Source: Minisyncoccota bacterium
GTDB taxonomy: Bacteria; Patescibacteriota; Minisyncoccia; Phycocordibacterales; UBA9973
Direction: 5' to 3'
Length of the DNA stretch: 64,000 nt
NCBI GenBank assembly: GCA_041648595.1
Contig: JBAZOQ010000001.1
Location: forward strand, 82,242-146,241
Shown piece after piece: positions 4,953-64,000 of the stretch. The notes beneath the pieces are model-generated. The model ran no database searches. It was not told the origin of the DNA and was given only the letters and a program-made list of their open reading frames with translations. Within the stretch, counting starts at the first letter, position 1; each line of letters starts with the position of its first letter. The translations under genes and the position numbers were made by a program.

Positions 4953-5690
4953 ATGATTCTAGAACATTTAGATAAAAATAATTTACATCATGCATATTTG
5001 ATAGAAGGTAGAAAAGAGGATATTGTGCCAGATATTTTTGAATTTTTAAAAGATTTAAAAATAAATACATCCAACAATCCTGATTTTTATCATATGTCTT
5101 TTGATACATTTAAAATTGAGGATGCTCATAATTTAAAATCTATACAATATGAAAAAAGTTTTTCTTTGGGCAAAAAAATAATTTTGATTTCAGCTAATAA
5201 TTTTTTGTTAGAAGCACAAAATACTTTACTAAAAATTTTTGAAGAACCAATAGAAAATACGCATTTCTTTTTAATTGTGCCAAATAAAAATATTTTGTTA
5301 AAGACCTTACTCTCTAGATTTTATTTAATTCAAACTAAGTCAGACTTAGAAGAAGAATTGAAAGAAGCAGAAAAATTTATTTCAATGCCGTTGAGAAATA
5401 GATTAGACTATATTAAAGAATTTTTGATAGAAGAAGTCCCGACCGAAGTCGGGATCCCGACAGAGGTCGGGAAAGATATATTACAAGATTCTGTTCGTGC
5501 AAAAGCATTAAGGTTTCTCAATGCATTAGAAACTGTGCTTCACCACAGGGTAGCCCTGTGTAATTACACAGGGCTACCCTGTGGTGGTATTTTTGCTCAT
5601 ATTTTTAAAGTCCGTGAATTTATCAATCAACCTGGTTCATCAATAAAAAGCTTGATGGAATCTTTAGCACTAAAAATACCAAGTTTTTAA
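4953..5690 (+). CDS. holB: DNA polymerase III delta-prime-like subunit (HolB-like, degenerate, no P-loop)
   Basis: HHAYLIEG...NTLLKIFEEP...HFFLIV resembles the clamp-loader delta' fold, and a bona fide dnaX lies elsewhere in the window. It contains two in-frame GC-rich hairpin/palindrome insertions. Confidence 0.55.
   Translation: MILEHLDKNNLHHAYLIEGRKEDIVPDIFEFLKDLKINTSNNPDFYHMSFDTFKIEDAHNLKSIQYEKSFSLGKKIILISANNFLLEAQNTLLKIFEEPIENTHFFLIVPNKNILLKTLLSRFYLIQTKSDLEEELKEAEKFISMPLRNRLDYIKEFLIEEVPTEVGIPTEVGKDILQDSVRAKALRFLNALETVLHHRVALCNYTGLPCGGIFAHIFKVREFINQPGSSIKSLMESLALKIPSF
5436..5472. repeat. Two adjacent small GC hairpins in-frame in the holB-like gene (encode EVPTEVGIPTEVGK)
   Basis: The sequences cccgac cgaa gtcggg and tcccgac aga ggtcggga form a tandem peptide repeat PTEVG-IPTEVG. 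Confidence 0.6.
5541..5587. repeat. Perfect ~46-bp GC-rich palindrome in-frame in the holB-like gene (encodes HHRVALCNYTGLPCGG)
   Basis: The sequence caccacagggtagccctgtgtaat tacacagggctaccctgtggtg has ~23-bp perfect arms. Confidence 0.75.
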
Positions 5691-10851: not shown

Positions 10852-11763
10852 TTATATCAATTTTTTTAAATTTATCTTTTTGGATGCATCAAACCACTTA
10901 ATTTCTTTATCGCGTTTAAACCATGTCATTTGGCGTTTTGTGTATTTTATAGTTTCTTTTACAACTTTTTTATAAGTAGGGGAATCGTATTCAAAACCAA
11001 ACTCTTTTAGTCTTTTCTCTGATATACCAAATTTTTTGAGTTTTTTTATTTCATTAAGTAAACCATCTGCAAACATTTTTTTAACTCTTTTTTCTATTTT
11101 CTTTTTTAAAATATCTGTTGGTAAATATAATCCAATTTTTATGAATTTATATGGTGATACACTTTCTGCCATGGCAGAGTTTGTATCACTTTGTAGTTTT
11201 GGAACTTTACCGAGAGCTTTTGCTATCTCTATTGCTCTCACTAATCTCACTTTATTATTTAACTCATTTTTATTTTTAATATCTTTTGCACGTCTAGGGT
11301 CTAATTTTTTCAAATACTCAAATAATGCTATCGCAGATTTTGAGTATAATGCTTTTCTCAATTTCAAATTTGGTGGAACTTTTGGAAAAACTGTCCCTTT
11401 AGTAATTGCATCAATATAAAAACCAGTACCTCCACAGATAATTGGAGTTTTACCTTTTTTTACAATCTCAGCCATGGCGTAGATTGCTTTTTTTTGATAT
11501 TTGGCTACTGTGAATTTCCGTTTAGGATCTACAACATCAATAAGATGATGAAAAATTCCTTTCATTTCTTTAGTAGTAATTTTTCCAGTCCCAATATCAA
11601 GTCCTTTATAAACTTGTCTAGAATCAGCAGAAATAACCTCTGCACCGTTTATCCCTGCTTTTTTAGCTTGTCCTGAGCTTAGTCGAAGGGCAATTTTAAC
11701 AGCTAAATTACTCTTTCCAGTAGCTGTAGGGCCTAATATTACAATAACTTTTGGTTTTTGCAT
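10852..11763 (-). CDS. miaA: tRNA dimethylallyltransferase (isopentenyl-adenosine A37)
   Basis: The N-terminal P-loop is VIVILGPTATGKSNLAVKIAL, and ...SADSRQVYKGLDIGTGK is the MiaA signature. Confidence 0.9.
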   Translation of the reverse strand: MQKPKVIVILGPTATGKSNLAVKIALRLSSGQAKKAGINGAEVISADSRQVYKGLDIGTGKITTKEMKGIFHHLIDVVDPKRKFTVAKYQKKAIYAMAEIVKKGKTPIICGGTGFYIDAITKGTVFPKVPPNLKLRKALYSKSAIALFEYLKKLDPRRAKDIKNKNELNNKVRLVRAIEIAKALGKVPKLQSDTNSAMAESVSPYKFIKIGLYLPTDILKKKIEKRVKKMFADGLLNEIKKLKKFGISEKRLKEFGFEYDSPTYKKVVKETIKYTKRQMTWFKRDKEIKWFDASKKINLKKLI

Positions 11764-13267: not shown

Positions 13268-14314
13268 ATGTCTACTTTATACTCCAACTCAATTTTTTGG
13301 ATTGATACAGACAAGATCAAACCAAATCCATATCAACCAAGACGAGATTTTGATGAAACTCGACTTCAAGATTTAGCTGACTCAATTAAACAATATGGAG
13401 TATTGCAACCTTTGACAGTTTCTCGTGTTGAGATAGAAAAGGAAGATGGAGGTCTTGCAACAGAATATGAACTTATAGCAGGAGAAAGAAGATTAAGAGC
13501 AGCTATTTTAGCTAGAGTATCACAAGTGCCAGCTATTATTCGTGTCGGAGATACTTCAATGATGAAACTTGAACTCGCTATTATAGAAAATTTACAACGT
13601 GAAGATTTAAATGTTGTTGATCGTGCAAGAGCATTTTTTCGTTTAACTAGTGAATTTAAATTCACTCATAATGAAGTTGCTAAAAAAATGGGTAGAAGTA
13701 GGGAATATGTTTCAAATACTTTACGTATTTTGGCATTGCCTGAAGAAGTACTTAATGCATTGTCTGAAGGAAAAATTACAGAAGGACATACGAGACCAAT
13801 TTTGATGCTTACAGATCATCCAGAAGAACAAATGGTTTTATTTAAAGAAATTTTATATAAAAAAATAACTGTTAGAGAAGCAGAAAGATTAGCTAGAAAA
13901 ATTGCTTATGATCGTGTACGTAAAAAAGAATTTTTGCCAGATCCAGAAATAGTAGAACTTGAAGAAGAGTTTCAAGATAAATTAGGTACACGTGTTCATA
14001 TAGATAGAAAAGAACTAGGTGGACAAATTAAAATTGATTTCTTTTCTACTGAAGATTTACGTGCAATTTTAGATTTAATAAATAAATCAGCAATTGAAAG
14101 GAAGTTAGATGATGCTCCTGCTCATGCAGGAATGTTAGAAAATTATATTGCTAAAAATACAGAAACCGTAAATGTTGAACAGATAACACCTGAACAAATG
14201 TCAGAATTAGCCATCAATTCTTCTGAAATTCCATTAGACGATAGAACAAAAAATGAAATAAAAAAAGAAGAAGATGAAGATCATTTATACGATATTTCTA
14301 ATTTTAGCGTTTAA
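13268..14314 (+). CDS. parB: chromosome partitioning protein ParB (Spo0J)
   Basis: The ParB box (LIAGERRLRAA) and IENLQREDL are present, along with an HTH and a long acidic C-terminal extension. Confidence 0.85.
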   Translation: MSTLYSNSIFWIDTDKIKPNPYQPRRDFDETRLQDLADSIKQYGVLQPLTVSRVEIEKEDGGLATEYELIAGERRLRAAILARVSQVPAIIRVGDTSMMKLELAIIENLQREDLNVVDRARAFFRLTSEFKFTHNEVAKKMGRSREYVSNTLRILALPEEVLNALSEGKITEGHTRPILMLTDHPEEQMVLFKEILYKKITVREAERLARKIAYDRVRKKEFLPDPEIVELEEEFQDKLGTRVHIDRKELGGQIKIDFFSTEDLRAILDLINKSAIERKLDDAPAHAGMLENYIAKNTETVNVEQITPEQMSELAINSSEIPLDDRTKNEIKKEEDEDHLYDISNFSV

Positions 14315-15802: not shown

Positions 15803-18058
15803 TTATTCTATTTTAGATAACTTATGTGGATTATGATTTGGACAGGATTTGTCACTACATCTATCAGGAATAGTTTTTGTGCCTTCCATCATTAATGATC
15901 CACACTTATTACATAATTTACCTGTAGGTTTTGCTTTTATTGCATATTTACAATCAGGATAATTTGAACAAGAATAAAATATACCAAAACGTCCTCTTCT
16001 TTCACTTATATCTCCTTTTTTACATACAGGACAAATGACGCCGGTTCTTTTTTTAGCCTCTTCAGCTTCATCTTTTTTAATAAATTTACATTTTGGATAA
16101 CGTGAACAAGAGATAAAAGTACCTGTTCCATCACGTCTTTCTTTTATAATCAATTTACCACCACCTTGTTTTCCTTTTTTCTCTCCACATTCAGGGCACA
16201 ATTCTCCAGTTTCTTTAGGTCCTTCCAGTTCTGTTCCATCTAATCTTAATGCTCCATCACAATCTGGATATTTAATACAAGAATAAAATTTACCACCACG
16301 AGAAAGTTTTATAATCATTTTATCTCCACATTTTGGGCATTTCATATTTTCTGGTGCTTCTCCTAGGTTTGTCGCTTTCTCTAATTTCTCTTTTATTTTT
16401 ATTTCTTTTGAAAATGGTCCATAAAAATCTTTTAATGTTTTCTCGTATTCACGTTCACCGCGTGATATTTCATCTAATTCATCTTCCATTTCTGCTGTAA
16501 ATGTATCAGAAATATAATTTGCAAAATGTGTTTCTAAAAATAGAGACACAACTTCACCAACATCAGTAGGGAATAGAGTTTTATTTTCTTTTCTTACGTA
16601 TTCACGATCTTCTAGCGTCTTCATTATGGAAGCATAAGTAGATGGTCTACCTATATCACGAGCTTCCAATTCTTTAATAAGGCCAGCCTCACTATATCTA
16701 TTTGGTGGTTCTGTAAATTTTTCTTCTTTTATTAAATTTAGTAATTTTAATTTTTCTCCAATTTTCACTTCTGGTAATTCTATGTCTTCTCCTCTACTAT
16801 CCTTCTCAACTTCCAACCATCCTCTAAAAAGAATTCTTGAACCAGTAGCTGTAAAGTCTGGAAATTCAAATTCTGCGGAAGCCTTGCTTCCGCGAGTACG
16901 CGGAAGCAAGGCTTCCGCAGAAATATTTGCACTTATTTTTGTTTTTAATAATCTTGCATCAGTCATTTGAGATGAGACAGTACGTTCCCAAATCAATTTA
17001 TAAAGTCTCTGTTGTTCGTCGGTACCCGCTCCAAGATTTTCTATATGAGTCGGACGAATTGCTTCGTGTGCTTCTTGTGCATTTTTAGATTTAGTTTTAT
17101 ATATTTTAGCTTCTGCATAATTTTTTCCATATTTTTTTTTAACAAGAGAAATGATTTGGGTTTGTGCTACTGCGGATAGGTTTGTACTATCTGTTCGCAT
17201 ATATGTAATATGTCCAGCTTCATAAAGTTTTTGTGCTAATTGCATTGTTTTTGAAGGAGAATAACCAAGTCGTGAACTTGCTGTTTGTTGTAATGTAGAA
17301 GTAGTAAATGGTGCACGAGGTGTTCGTTTTTGTTCTGATTCTTTTACTCCAGTTACTAACCAATCTCCATTTTTTCCTTCTTCTAATATTTTTTCAACTA
17401 AATCTTTTTCTCTTGGTTCCTTGGAACAATTTAATGTTATCTTTGCTTTTTTGAGTGTTTCAAAAAGACCCAAAAGTTTCCAATATTGTTCAGGAATAAA
17501 AGCACGGATTTCTCTTTCGCGTTCCATTATTATACGAAGTGCAGGGGATTGGACTCTTCCTGCAGAGAGCCCATAACGTACTTTTTTCCAAATAAGTCCT
17601 GAAAGATCATATCCTACAAGTCTATCCAAAACTCGTCTCGCTTCTTGAGCTTTTCTTAAGTTTGTATCAATTTCTCTTGGATTTTTTAATGCTTCAATAA
17701 CTGCTTCTTTTGTTATTTCATAAAAAGCTACACGCTTTATTGGTGCCTTTACTTTTTTATCTTTTTTTAATAGTTCTTCTATGTGCCATGCTATAGCTTC
17801 TCCTTCACGATCAGGGTCTGTTGCTAATAAAATTTCTGTTGCTTTTTCTCCAAGTGTTTGAAGTTCATGAACAACTTTTTCTTTACCACGAGAAATCTCA
17901 TAATGTGGTATAAAGCCACCTTCTATGTCTATTGCTGTTTTATTTGATTTAGGTAAATCACGAATATGTCCAATAGAAGCACGTACTGTGTACGCACCTT
18001 CTAAATATTTTTCTATAGTTTTTGCTTTTGATGGTGACTCAACAATAAGTAATTTCAT
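15803..18058 (-). CDS. topA: DNA topoisomerase I with C-terminal zinc-ribbon repeats
   Basis: A Toprim N-terminus (MKLLIVESPSKAKTIEKYL), the type IA core, and multiple C-terminal CxxC...CxxC zinc ribbons are present. It contains an in-frame 48-bp palindrome. Confidence 0.9.
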   Translation of the reverse strand: MKLLIVESPSKAKTIEKYLEGAYTVRASIGHIRDLPKSNKTAIDIEGGFIPHYEISRGKEKVVHELQTLGEKATEILLATDPDREGEAIAWHIEELLKKDKKVKAPIKRVAFYEITKEAVIEALKNPREIDTNLRKAQEARRVLDRLVGYDLSGLIWKKVRYGLSAGRVQSPALRIIMEREREIRAFIPEQYWKLLGLFETLKKAKITLNCSKEPREKDLVEKILEEGKNGDWLVTGVKESEQKRTPRAPFTTSTLQQTASSRLGYSPSKTMQLAQKLYEAGHITYMRTDSTNLSAVAQTQIISLVKKKYGKNYAEAKIYKTKSKNAQEAHEAIRPTHIENLGAGTDEQQRLYKLIWERTVSSQMTDARLLKTKISANISAEALLPRTRGSKASAEFEFPDFTATGSRILFRGWLEVEKDSRGEDIELPEVKIGEKLKLLNLIKEEKFTEPPNRYSEAGLIKELEARDIGRPSTYASIMKTLEDREYVRKENKTLFPTDVGEVVSLFLETHFANYISDTFTAEMEDELDEISRGEREYEKTLKDFYGPFSKEIKIKEKLEKATNLGEAPENMKCPKCGDKMIIKLSRGGKFYSCIKYPDCDGALRLDGTELEGPKETGELCPECGEKKGKQGGGKLIIKERRDGTGTFISCSRYPKCKFIKKDEAEEAKKRTGVICPVCKKGDISERRGRFGIFYSCSNYPDCKYAIKAKPTGKLCNKCGSLMMEGTKTIPDRCSDKSCPNHNPHKLSKIE
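16873..16920. repeat. Perfect 48-bp GC-rich palindrome in-frame inside topA
   Basis: The sequence ctgcggaagccttgcttccgcg agta cgcggaagcaaggcttccgcag has 22-bp perfect arms. It encodes ...AEALLPRTRGSKASAE... on the topA strand, and nearly the same peptide on the other strand (spurious ORF 16782..16970). Confidence 0.8.
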
Positions 18059-43618: not shown

Positions 43619-43701
43619 CTACTTATTAAATTGACTAACCCAAAATATTTTTTTATCTTTTAACCACTTTAATATTAGTTTTCCATATTTTTATAATATC
43701 T

Positions 43702-43735
43702 AACATCCTTACAAACTCCAGTTTGTAAGGATGTT
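43702..43735. terminator. 15-bp-stem hairpin aacatccttacaaac tcca gtttgtaaggatgtt, downstream of the ArsR-family gene
   Basis: It has a perfect stem and shares the core ctacaaactccagtttgtag with the hairpin at ~44037..44070. Confidence 0.55.
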
Positions 43736-43736
43736 A

Positions 43737-44036
43737 TTATGTTTGTTTAAATAATTTTAAAAAATTAACAAAGATTTTACCATATGGAGATAAAGTATGT
43801 TCAACAAATTTACCTTTATATTTTTTATTAATCAATCCTGCTTGGTGAAGTCTTCGAGTATGCTCTCCTATTGTTTTCGGATTTGCATCAAGCGTTTCAA
43901 TAATACCATCAAGAGTTATTCCATCTTCCTTGGCTACAAGAAGTAATATTTCAATGCGATGATGGTTTGCCATACCTTTGAGATGTCGCTCCATTTGTTT
44001 AGCTGTTTTTATTTTACCCATATTTATATTATACAC
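43737..44036 (-). CDS. ArsR/SmtB-family winged-helix transcriptional regulator; GTG start
   Basis: HHRIEILLLVAKEDGITLDGIIETL...HTRRLHQAGLI is the ArsR HTH signature. Confidence 0.75.
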   Translation of the reverse strand: MYNINMGKIKTAKQMERHLKGMANHHRIEILLLVAKEDGITLDGIIETLDANPKTIGEHTRRLHQAGLINKKYKGKFVEHTLSPYGKIFVNFLKLFKQT

Positions 44037-44070
44037 AATACCCCTACAAACTCCAGTTTGTAGGGGTATT
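44037..44070. terminator. Second hairpin of the same family, aatacccc(c)tacaaac tcca gtttgtaggggtatt, between the SWIB gene and the ArsR gene
   Basis: The loop and inner stem are the same as 43702..43735, while the outer stem carries compensatory changes. Confidence 0.55.
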
Positions 44071-44122
44071 ATTTAAATTAGAAGCAAAAATTATTTCTTT
44101 GCTTTTTTGGTTTAACTTAAAA

Positions 44123-53389: not shown

Positions 53390-53479
53390 CGTTATGTAAA
53401 ACTTTTAATTGTTCTTTGAAAAAGATAATGGAGAAAAAATGAAAAGAAAATGGTTTAACTATTGTTCTTTAGGAGGAGC

Positions 53480-53578
53480 AGGTCCTCATAAGTAAATCAG
53501 ATTAGAGAAACTAAACAGGTCCTCATAAATAAATCAGATTAGAGAAACTAAAATTTATTTAGTTTCTCTAATTTATAA
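53480..53578 (+). promoter_or_regulatory. Tandem 37-bp direct repeat (x2) followed by an inverted partial copy forming a 15-bp-stem hairpin, ~25 nt upstream of the 53602 start codon
   Basis: The tandem copies are gcaggtcctcataagtaaatcagattagagaaactaaa and caggtcctcataaataaatcagattagagaaactaaa. They are followed by atttatt tagtttctctaat ttataat, and then the AAGGAG RBS. Confidence 0.6.
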
Positions 53579-62028: not shown

Positions 62029-62697
62029 ATGAAAAATTTTAAAACTTATAATTTACAAAACATGAACACAATAGAAAAATTAACTGAAATATTCAAAGAA
62101 TTCCCTGGCATAGGAGAGCGACAAGCAAAACGTTTTGTTTATTTTTTAATGTCCAAAAATGGAGATTATGGAGATATTTTATCCAATTTAATAAAAGATT
62201 TAAAAAAAGAAATAGCTCAATGTACTGAATGTTTTAAATTTTTCCTTTTAGATTCAAATAAAAATAAATCGTGTGAACTTTGTATAGATCAAAATATTGA
62301 TTCTTCTACTTTAATGATCGTTGAAAAAGATTCTGACCTAGAAAGTATACATAAAAGTAAAGTTTATAATGGTAAATATTTTATTTTAGGAGGACTAGTC
62401 CCCATAGTTGAGAAAAATACAAATTCAAAAATAAGAATGAATGAATTAATAGAAAAAATTAAAAGAGAGAAAAAAAACCCGCCAAAGGACGGGCAAGTCT
62501 TAAAAGAAATTGTTTTAGCTTTTTCTCTTAATCCTCAAGGCAATCACACTGATTTTTATATTAGAAATCAATTAAAACCTGTCACCGAATCACTAAACAT
62601 AAAAATCTCATCTTTAGGTAGGGGTCTATCCACAGGCACAGAACTCGAGTATTCCGACAACGACACTCTTAAAAATGCTTTGAAAAATAGACAATAA
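62029..62697 (+). CDS. recR: recombination protein RecR
   Basis: An HhH N-terminus (FPGIGERQAKRFVYFL), a Cys4 zinc finger (CTECFKFF...CELC), a Toprim domain and a C-terminal extension are present. Confidence 0.8.
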   Translation: MKNFKTYNLQNMNTIEKLTEIFKEFPGIGERQAKRFVYFLMSKNGDYGDILSNLIKDLKKEIAQCTECFKFFLLDSNKNKSCELCIDQNIDSSTLMIVEKDSDLESIHKSKVYNGKYFILGGLVPIVEKNTNSKIRMNELIEKIKREKKNPPKDGQVLKEIVLAFSLNPQGNHTDFYIRNQLKPVTESLNIKISSLGRGLSTGTELEYSDNDTLKNALKNRQ

Positions 62698-62701
62698 AAA
62701 A

Positions 62702-62735
62702 GACCGTCACTAAATTACTAGCGACGGTTTTCTAT
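62702..62735 (+). terminator. weak hairpin terminator after recR
   Basis: The sequence accgtc actaaattactagc gacggt is followed by tttctattttt. Confidence 0.35.
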
Positions 62736-63104
62736 TTTTGCCAATTGATCCATAATATAGAAGATTTGTTAGCTTAAAAATAGAAGTTTCTACTTTTAGC
62801 AACAAATTTCCCTCTGCATCGAGAGAGTTCTAAGATCCAGTCTGAATAATCTCAATAATATTCAATACCTGTTATTCTAGAGTGTGAATCCATTATTTTT
62901 TTATATATTCCGGGCTCCCTCTCTCTTGACGTATACTGGGTATTTACTTCCCAATAGCCCTTTAAATGTATTTTTACGGGATCAAATTTAGCAATAAAAA
63001 GAACATATATGTTCTCCTTTTTTTATTACTATTGCACAAATGAGTGTTTCTCACAAAGAACAATAGTTTTAATAACTATAAAACTATTCAATTTTTTAGT
63101 CAAT

Positions 63105-63140
63105 CAATACTCAATTTCTGCTATCGCTAAGTTTGAGTAT
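63105..63140. repeat. 36-bp internally palindromic repeat R1 (caatactcaatttctgctatcgctaagtttgagtat); contains the TAG stop of gene 63127..63627
   Basis: It is 31/36 identical to R2 at 63603..63638. The outer arms atactcaa / ttgagtat are inverted. Confidence 0.8.
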
Positions 63141-63627
63141 TATATGATTTAGCTAATTTAAATGTTTTAATACATTCTTTTAGTTTAATTTCATTTATAT
63201 AATCTAAAAAATCTTTTGGAAGTGGAGATGGTCCAACCCAAACACTTTTTTGAATCATCTCATAACCAAATTCTCGTAAGTTAAAACGAAACCATTCTCT
63301 TTCTGCTTTTTTGGTTTCCGGTATATCAAACATAACAAGCAAATTTTTAGGTGCTTCTTTTTTATAAGGTGAATTAAATATTAAAAATCTAACTTTTTTA
63401 TTTTCAACATATTTTCTTCCACTAGGTAATAACAAAATACAATCATCTTGTTTTAAGATGTGACCATTCTTATTTAATTGATGAATCGTATTATTTATAG
63501 ATTGTTTTTTATAAGGGAAAATGGCTGGCAAGCCAAGCATACTAACCGGCATACCTCTATATCTAAATTTTGGTTCTAATAGAAATTTTAAAATTTTACT
63601 TTCAATACTCAATTTCTGCGATAGCAT
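63127..63627 (-). CDS. wHTH + Cas2/VapD-like endoribonuclease-fold protein (orphan; no cas1 or array seen in the window)
   Basis: The C-terminal NLLVMFDIPETKKAEREWFRFNLREFGYEMIQKSVWV closely parallels the Cas2 N-terminal beta1-alpha1-beta2 core (for example type II Cas2 [37 protein letters not shown]) and VapD. The N-terminal ~95 aa look like a winged helix. The ATG and stop fall at the equivalent position of the two flanking 36-bp repeats. Confidence 0.5.
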   Translation of the reverse strand: MLSQKLSIESKILKFLLEPKFRYRGMPVSMLGLPAIFPYKKQSINNTIHQLNKNGHILKQDDCILLLPSGRKYVENKKVRFLIFNSPYKKEAPKNLLVMFDIPETKKAEREWFRFNLREFGYEMIQKSVWVGPSPLPKDFLDYINEIKLKECIKTFKLAKSYNTQT

Positions 63628-63638
63628 AATTTGAGTAT
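63603..63638. repeat. 36-bp palindromic repeat R2 (caatactcaatttctgcgatagcataatttgagtat); contains the ATG start of gene 63127..63627
   Basis: See R1. The R1-R2 spacing is exactly 498 bp (166 codons). Confidence 0.8.
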
Positions 63639-63956
63639 AACATATTTATATAAGAAAATACTCTCAAAAATCGACAATAAAAAAACCAGCCAAAAATTTG
63701 ACTGGTTTAATATACTAATTTTACTAAACAAAACACAAATGGATCCTTGTTTGCTGCTTATTGCCAACATTGTAGACCAGGGGTATAACCGTGACCAACT
63801 GACACCTCTGTTTTCCCGCATTATTGCAGGCAGATTTTGTTTATAAGGCAAAATCCCTTGTCGACTACACATTGTCTCTTTACATCAAGAAATGGTTGGA
63901 TATAGTTAAAAAGATGCAGATTTACCTTTGAATCCGAACACTTGTAAAATAGAAAG

Positions 63957-64000
63957 ATGAATAAGTTTAATCATTTTAATTTAGGCGAAAGAAAAAGAAT
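63957..64000 (+). CDS. 5' end of an unidentified gene (MNKFNHFNLGERKR...), truncated by the window end
   Basis: An ATG at 63957 is followed by an open frame to the window edge. Confidence 0.3.
   Translation, partial: MNKFNHFNLGERKR

Follow-up and report, generated by a model that had tools for sequence, protein, structure and literature searches.

Near one end of the 64-kb stretch of Minisyncoccota DNA analysed here (the window; 29% G+C), a small gene lies between two copies, R1 and R2, of a palindromic repeat; the 101.6-kb contig, which comes from an ENA metagenome, stops 426 nt upstream of this gene. We found that the gene product is a truncated PaaX-type transcription regulator, which consists of a winged helix and the PaaX central Cas2-like domain and from which the C-terminal domain is absent (hereafter mini-PaaX). 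We consider it probable that mini-PaaX represses its own gene through operators at both gene ends and, in addition, controls a small regulon. The layout is conserved throughout the family and the same site occurs inside miaA; we therefore read the locus as a regulatory unit, and not as a CRISPR, toxin or mobile-element gene.

The mini-PaaX gene and its flanking palindromes

The features of the locus are as follows.

63105-63140, no strand: R1, downstream palindrome; overlaps the stop codon; presumed auxiliary operator or roadblock
63603-63638, no strand: R2, upstream palindrome; overlaps the -10 box and start codon; presumed operator
63127-63627, minus strand: mini-PaaX regulator gene, an open reading frame (ORF) of 166 aa; alternative start TTG at 63612
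63358-63627, minus strand: residues 1-90, winged helix-turn-helix, the variable part of the family
63148-63348, minus strand: residues 94-160, Cas2-like ferredoxin-fold domain, nearly invariant, presumed dimerisation
63634-63642, minus strand: extended -10 element TGtTATACT, predicted from sequence, 6 nt ahead of the ATG

The C-terminal half of the protein matched Pfam PF20803 (PaaX_M, 'PaaX protein central Cas2-like domain') over residues 97-159 (E 6.4e-14; score 52.3 bits, cut-off 24), a family that is precomputed on every homologue listed. Cas2 profiles matched as well, each in part: PF09827 (E 2e-5; 25.1 bits against 23.8) at profile positions 3-51 of 74 only, TIGR01573 (NCBIfam cas2; E 2.6e-7; 30.8 against 24.5) at positions 3-40 of 96 only, and the PADLOC Cas2 models (E 6e-9) over residues 96-148 only. 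The PaaX equivalog model TIGR02277 aligned only along positions 65-149 of its 279 and scored 19.7 bits, far short of the 264.55 required, as the protein has no counterpart to the C-terminal half of PaaX: it stops at residue 166 and gave no match to PF08223, the C-terminal helical effector (phenylacetyl-CoA) domain.

An AlphaFold2 model (mean predicted local distance difference test score, pLDDT, 80.6) folds the chain into a winged-helix-like H-E-E-H-E-E-H unit (H, helix; E, strand) followed by E-H-E-E-H-E. The second unit is ferredoxin-like and keeps the aspartate of its first beta-strand, which, together with the PF20803 and Cas2 profile matches, upholds the proposal of the first-pass annotation that the C-terminal half is Cas2/VapD-like and carries the MFDIP aspartate; its placing of a winged helix ahead of that domain likewise agrees with the model. 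This residue, Asp101, is invariant in 47 sequences, and its counterpart in Cas2 3exc is the Asp in the LVVYDV motif. The fusion was rightly said to be no standard Cas2, as the protein has 166 aa with an extra N-terminal domain and matches about half of the Cas2 profile; apart from the missing effector domain, what looked like an unusual fusion thus has the established architecture of PaaX. A Foldseek comparison, which that annotation had recommended for Cas2, VapD and PaaX-type proteins, gave no significant match, but Lrp/AsnC, Cas2, VapD and PaaX-family structures were among those listed. The closest structure by fold comparison was E. coli PaaX, a DNA-binding repressor; in a sequence search of the PDB, PaaX was not significantly matched, and the relationship is thus seen by fold comparison only.

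We detected 1,491 homologues of about 160-170 aa, and every one with a named source comes from Patescibacteria; the family had no matches in viral contigs. Between subfamilies the winged-helix half is 30% identical and the Cas2-like half 75%. Some members are named Cas2 by NCBI and JGI, because the NCBIfam cas2 profile just passes its cut-off. In the literature on PaaX and Cas2-like proteins and on palindromic regulons of Patescibacteria, we found no description of the mini-PaaX family.

R1 and R2 proved as alike as first described, with 31 of 36 positions identical and a spacing of 498 bp, and each is an imperfect palindrome with the arms ATACTCAA/TTGAGTAT. The 8-bp core is inverted in R1 relative to R2. 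A degenerate-pattern scan of the window with up to 3 mismatches returned R1 and R2 only, with 0 expected from 100 shuffles. The reported coincidence of ATG and TAG at one repeat position holds here (both at positions 23-25; 63625-63627 and 63127-63129) but is specific to the window's subfamily, and not strict even there. The centre of R2 is 6 nt into the coding sequence throughout the window's subfamily, and the stop codon falls at another place in three loci of that subfamily (L003, L005, L006); in other subfamilies, the palindromes are centred 36-69 nt ahead of the start (upstream copy) and 17-45 nt past the stop (downstream copy). The exact start of the regulator is itself uncertain, because one relative (L007) lacks the ATG and begins at the codon equivalent to the window's TTG codon 6 (63612). 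Beyond the stop codon, R1 reads QKLSI in frame, like the N-terminus of the protein; a decayed tandem duplicate downstream was considered and rejected, the three-frame translation of 62650-63140 being dissimilar to the protein.

We compared 30 genome loci, comprising 26 close family relatives and 4 remote homologues. A palindrome of about 34-40 bp was present at both gene ends in all 26 close loci and in two of the four remote homologues (L028, at 34% identity, and L029), whose palindromes are unrelated in sequence. Most close loci share the core GC(T/G)AT(C/A)GC; one (L025) has a different core. The outer arms vary by subfamily (ATACTCAA, TACTxxAAAC, TTGTTAACA, GTGACACA, AAGGTAGC), are symmetric in each, and are identical in type between the two copies of a locus. 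Over 48 sites, mirrored positions were complementary in 80% of cases, as compared with 60% in shuffled and 31-45% in slid controls. The arm columns contained 18-26 two-sided changes, and the inner spacer was poorly symmetric (50-65% paired); these sites are therefore more readily understood as two protein half-sites than as the stem of a hairpin. Arm sequence and putative recognition-helix region change together, so that a variable winged helix appears to parallel variable arms, and a conserved Cas2-like domain a conserved core. The downstream palindrome lies mostly between convergent gene ends; because the neighbour is usually convergent, it is not the operator of a downstream promoter, and we ruled out that R1 serves a co-directional downstream gene in this way.

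The upstream palindrome is placed with respect to the promoter in one of two ways. In most subfamilies it ends just 5' of TGnTATAAT, 6-8 nt before the ATG, and in the window's subfamily the -10 element (TGtTATACT, at 63642-63634) lies within the left arm of a palindrome that extends over the start. Judged from the sequence, the gene apparently has an extended -10 promoter and a leaderless mRNA. Both arrangements, with the palindrome before or over the -10 element, suit autorepression. Thus, of the three possibilities raised in the first-pass annotation, the operator-flanked, autoregulated gene is the one we favour, given the family-wide flanking sites, the co-variation of arms and winged helix, and the promoter overlap. 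Nothing supports its toxin option, and no antitoxin partner was found.

In our model, the Cas2-like domain would mediate formation of a dimer, which would bind the ~34-bp palindrome: the two winged helices would read the outer 8-bp arms, ATACTCAA and TTGAGTAT, and the conserved domain would be placed over the conserved 8-bp core. Occupancy of R2 would shut off the gene's own promoter, because the -10 box and the 5' end of the apparently leaderless mRNA fall within R2. R1, at the stop codon, would act as a second operator that forms a ~500-bp repression loop with R2 or, alternatively, as a protein roadblock to transcription coming from the convergent neighbour. Sites in miaA and, in related genomes, upstream of a Cys-rich gene (see below) would make up the small regulon, each paralogue having its own miaA site. 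E. coli PaaX, whose architecture comprises a winged helix-turn-helix, a dimerisation motif and a C-terminal domain, binds TGATTC-N27-GAATCA, a long palindrome whose half-sites are far apart, and by obstructing RNA polymerase it represses the promoter of its own gene (PMC9493321).

Another gene in the window is framed in the same manner:

43737-44036, minus strand: ArsR/HTH_5-type regulator gene, 94-99 aa, with 38-40-bp palindromes at 43699-43738 and 44034-44073

The ArsR-like site has the core AAACTG|GAGTTT and slightly different arms, and its upstream copy adjoins TGTGTATAAT, which lies 6 nt ahead of the ATG. Homologues in Sungbacteria-named, Parcubacteria-named and Minisyncoccia loci (L132-L134) are bracketed too, with an extended -10 box, 6-7 nt ahead of the ATG, directly beside the upstream copy. 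That this unrelated regulator shares the layout speaks for bracketing as a regulatory design and against its being a property of the Cas2-like domain, and suggests a layout common to autoregulators in these tiny genomes.

Sites in miaA and a putative regulon

The first-pass annotation had advised a search for further copies of the repeat. A relaxed scan of the window revealed a third copy with the same arms, inside miaA, where two related palindromes also lie:

11314-11347, no strand: M1, third copy of the R1/R2 palindrome inside miaA; encodes YSKSAIALFEY
11152-11191, no strand: M2, sister palindrome inside miaA; arms GTGATACA/TGTATCAC, core GCCATGGC
11463-11486, no strand: M0, weaker third miaA palindrome; core GCCATGGC, arms CAATCT/AGATTG; encodes AIYAMAEI

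The arm types of M2 and M0 match the operator types of other paralogue subfamilies; the M2 arms, for instance, resemble the flanking sites of one of the compared loci (L010). Two further loci, L043 and L081, carry a strong TTGTTAACA-type palindrome at the position equivalent to M0.

When metagenomes were scanned with ATACTCAA-N5-GCNATNGC-N5-TTGAGTAT, 97 stretches matched. Thirty of these lay at the M1 position in miaA (MiaA identity 48-88%), 29 at the ends of family genes, and at least 16 at a distance of 8-20 nt upstream of one Cys-rich gene of about 560 aa; a few were found between ruvB and ruvC or inside reverse-transcriptase genes. The miaA genes picked by protein or peptide only (n=3) have identical codons at the site (TAC TCA AAA TCx GCG ATA GCA TTA TTT GAG TAT). 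Among 120 MiaA homologues selected on protein similarity, the site peptides were present in 87 (M0), 45 and 32 (M2), in all combinations. M1 and M0 replace sequence of equal length and thus evolved in place; M2 coincides with an insertion of 8-10 aa (32 of the 120 homologues). We had considered the miaA palindromes as insertions resembling Rickettsia palindromic elements, an idea that the length-neutral M1 and M0 oppose, M2 alone being an 8-10-aa indel. From these sequences, what we see looks like a small conserved regulon, with several paralogues converging on miaA, and the placement of the sites speaks for few conserved targets as opposed to random scatter.

Several observations concern the genes that carry such sites. 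The Cys-rich family (about 550-590 aa; L122 1024-2775, L042 6192-7901, L104 6125-9525 and about 13 other metagenomic loci) has an N-terminal zinc ribbon, CxNCKKDFxIExxDFxFYEKIxVPxPxxCPECR, and received no Pfam or NCBIfam assignment; its genes are sometimes tandem paralogues, each with a ATACTCAA palindrome 8-20 nt before the ATG. A ATACTCAA-type palindrome also occurs in frame inside RVT_1 genes (L065 348-381, L110 10113-10146, L118 3255-3288), where it encodes YSNSAIAEFEY, and a palindrome with different arms (ACGTCAACA type) lies inside a TP_methylase-family gene at about 12172 of L129. Intragenic sites are therefore not peculiar to miaA. The miaA palindromes themselves sit in a conserved neighbourhood by a partition gene: a parB/spo0J-like gene (13268-14314, plus strand) lies 1.5 kb from miaA in the window, and the order parB-murA-miaA is kept in L129-L131.

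Several points weigh against an autoregulated repressor with this regulon. An asymmetric core was found in 40 of 43 distinct sites, a feature that a symmetric dimer does not require, and the arm centres are 26 bp (about 2.5 helical turns) apart, so that on straight DNA the half-sites would face opposite ways. The repressor model gives no explanation for the invariance of Asp101 at the Cas2 catalytic position. The N-terminal domain had no significant Pfam match to a winged helix-turn-helix and its assignment relies on a structure model that is moderately confident there (pLDDT 59-85). None of the fetched loci contained both a paralogue and miaA, so as to allow arms and miaA site to be matched within one genome; and operators conserved deep within a coding sequence, as the miaA sites would be, are unusual. 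Finally, co-localisation and co-variation are what would tie the protein to its site.

Alternative explanations and the surrounding sequence

The alternative that fares best, though we think it unlikely, is control at the level of RNA, in which the palindromes would be transcript hairpins (at both ends of the gene's own mRNA, within the miaA mRNA and in the leader of the Cys-rich gene) bound or cut by the Cas2/VapD-like domain, and the downstream copy might in addition be a terminator or stabiliser. Sites with ATACTCAA arms all lie in or beside transcribed sequence, and the hairpins fold better than shuffles (-10.7 kcal/mol for R1 and R2, z about -3; -17.2 kcal/mol for M2, z -4.6). In addition, the structural neighbours include the VapD and Cas2 ribonucleases, whose catalytic position in Cas2 is that of the invariant aspartate; the asymmetric centre GATA/TATC could be a loop; and the downstream copies occur between convergent genes, where terminators belong. 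However, the upstream copy precedes the predicted -10 element in most subfamilies and hence is not part of the gene's transcript. The outer arms are strictly symmetric but pairing is poor (50-65%) in the stem beside the 'loop', whereas a hairpin would require the reverse, and both core orientations are found relative to the target gene. The R1 hairpin is modest and has no U-run. Moreover, the ArsR-like regulator has the same layout and no nuclease fold, and the structure closest to mini-PaaX is that of a DNA-binding repressor.

Less probable still is a self-recognising recombination or mobile cassette, whose 34-bp sites would be its ends or recombination sites, acted on by the encoded protein or by a partner that it recruits, and which could then be excised, inverted or moved as a unit. 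We give a similarly low probability to a related possibility, namely that the Cas2-like domain, with its invariant Asp, nicks or recombines the asymmetric core as part of a Cas2-derived self-recognising DNA element; such an element may be excised, as the single site in L037 might suggest, and may have planted its sites in miaA and other genes. The sites do have a 13-8-13 layout around a core that is conserved and, in nearly all distinct sites, asymmetric, and site and encoded protein co-evolve, as transposon ends do with their products. Three relatives (L037, L089, L091) lack exactly the gene and retain one hybrid palindrome, with the left flank of R1 and the right flank of R2. The order of the gene and a candidate structured RNA, S (described below), also differs between the window and L002, and a duplicated recR 3' end lies beside the gene. 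Yet these empty sites are equally expected from an ordinary deletion between the two 36-bp direct repeats, which is the simplest account of them. The mobile cassette entertained by the first-pass annotation finds no support in the gene order: mini-PaaX is followed by recR, dnaB and trpS in seven genomes (L002-L008; protein identity 73-84%), with one copy per subfamily per locus and, in the window, a single family copy and no second paralogue. No recombinase or transposase was linked to it among the window neighbours or in the loci inspected, and the lack of relatives in viral contigs led us to reject a phage or mobile origin. The extra sites occupy fixed positions in miaA, a gene of essential type, where they evolved in place without indels and where recombination would be harmful, and the unrelated ArsR-like regulator is bracketed identically.

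A degenerate CRISPR-adaptation remnant, that is, a stray Cas2 between two leftover repeats, can be dismissed: although the Cas2 models match above their cut-offs (TIGR01573, PF09827; also PADLOC Cas2), some members bear the name Cas2, and the repeats are 36 bp long and palindromic like many CRISPR repeats, the Cas2 profile is about half covered and is outscored by far by PF20803, the gene itself would be the 'spacer', and the layout recurs with lineage-specific repeats in all 26 close loci examined, of more than 1,400 homologues, and the same repeat is found in miaA. The absence of an array reported earlier was confirmed for the 64 kb, the called neighbours gave no cas Pfam, and at none of the loci inspected did cas1 or another cas gene adjoin the regulator; nothing points to this option of the first-pass annotation, and we ruled it out. 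The window neighbours are recR, dnaB, trpS and an SLT-domain gene; rplU-, gdhA- and recJ-like genes occur beside the family gene at other loci, and the neighbours in 25 loci are housekeeping-like as judged by sequence and, in part, Pfam scans. No paa (phenylacetate) genes were present among the neighbours in the window or other loci.

The flank of about 430 bp that had been described as non-coding looks instead like a gene for a structured RNA:

62698-63104, minus strand: candidate structured RNA S, about 380 nt, with its own promoter and terminator; probably outside the regulator unit

S has a promoter (TTGACT-17-TATAGT, at 63103-63075), a strong terminator (62728-62703) and a minimum free energy of -102 kcal/mol, as compared with -70 +/- 5 for shuffled sequences (z -6.5), with long-range pairing between UUGAUCCC and GGGAUCAA. 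Homologues occur in L037/L089/L091 and in L002, with 19 compensated pairs. S had no Rfam 15 match at gathering or permissive thresholds, ARAGORN found no tmRNA or tRNA, and a profile nhmmer search gave no further copies in the sequences examined.

Upstream of mini-PaaX, the 3' end of recR (..LKNRQ*) and a bidirectional terminator are duplicated at 76% identity (62672-62716 and 63655-63699; terminators at 62703-62728 and 63683-63708); the copy reads ENTLKNRQ* and is also present in L002-L004. S follows this remnant in L002 but the real recR end in the window, which implies that the surroundings of the gene were rearranged in the past. The GC-elevated stretch upstream of the gene (63709-63956) ends in the minus-strand terminator at 63708-63683; it contains no ORF or Rfam match, has no homologue in the fetched loci, and folds no better than shuffles (z -1.5). 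Beyond it, an ORF at 63957-64000 (plus strand) runs on to the contig end (L001 1-97, minus strand) and begins MNKFNHFNLGERKRIERYLKKGKSLREIARIL, which we take to resemble the N-terminal helix-turn-helix of IS30-type transposases; this would explain the assembly break. Elsewhere in the window, GC-rich, near-perfect palindromes of 36-40 bp (18-20 of 20 pairs) at about 2758-2798, 5543-5583 and 16876-16916 are probably strong terminators, and 53479-53552 comprises two tandem copies of a 37-bp unit that are 97% identical (CAGGTCCTCATAAATAAATCAGATTAGAGAAACTAAA).

Relation to known systems and significance

If mini-PaaX is a repressor of the kind proposed, it departs from its relatives in several respects. 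It is half the size of the PaaX of E. coli and Pseudomonas (PDB 8a39, 3l09; PF07848 + PF20803 + PF08223), keeps the Cas2-type Asp, and has a different site, in which an 8-bp core is conserved; for PaaX, neither a further site at the 3' end of its gene nor sites internal to miaA are described. Because the C-terminal effector-binding domain of PaaX is absent, mini-PaaX has no obvious ligand. Cas2 is a stand-alone protein of about 90-100 aa, in contrast to the 166 aa of mini-PaaX, and unlike Cas2 and VapD, mini-PaaX is fused to a DNA-binding domain, lacks a cas1, array or antitoxin partner, and is conserved as a stand-alone gene in Patescibacteria. The Lrp/AsnC regulators (NMB0573, PDB 2p6t) follow the same plan, a winged helix with a small oligomerising ferredoxin-like domain, and gave the best whole-length Foldseek match (E 0.04, not significant); however, no sequence relationship was detected, and their RAM domain belongs to another family.

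In the circuits of lambda CI at OR/OL, lac O1/O2 and gal OE/OI, a promoter operator works together with an auxiliary operator a few hundred bp away through DNA looping and cooperative binding, which makes repression tighter. Mini-PaaX is a candidate for looping of this type, and differs in that its auxiliary site lies exactly at the 3' end of its own gene, family-wide. The sites also resemble those of loxP/FRT, the ends of insertion sequences (IS) and repetitive extragenic palindromic elements with their associated tyrosine transposases (REP/RAYT) in being 34 bp long, with 13-bp inverted arms around an 8-bp asymmetric core, and in co-evolving with the gene product. Unlike those systems, mini-PaaX has no recombinase or transposase fold, its position is fixed, its conserved sites are few, and no movement was seen.

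Patescibacteria, the candidate phyla radiation (CPR), cannot be grown alone, and to our knowledge gene regulation in these bacteria is almost uncharted. The locus described here offers a concrete, testable pair of regulator and site, and it belongs to a CPR-wide family in which the predicted binding site of each member can be read at both ends of its own gene. The family may also lend itself to the study of specificity swapping, with the variable winged helix tracking the arms and the Cas2-like domain tracking the core, and it suggests a link to tRNA modification, as several paralogues appear to have sites inside miaA. The label 'CRISPR-associated endonuclease Cas2', which public pipelines attach to many family members, is an annotation error that inflates CRISPR counts in CPR genomes. 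Should the Cas2-like domain prove to act on the core, it would represent a previously unknown Cas2-descended DNA enzyme outside CRISPR.

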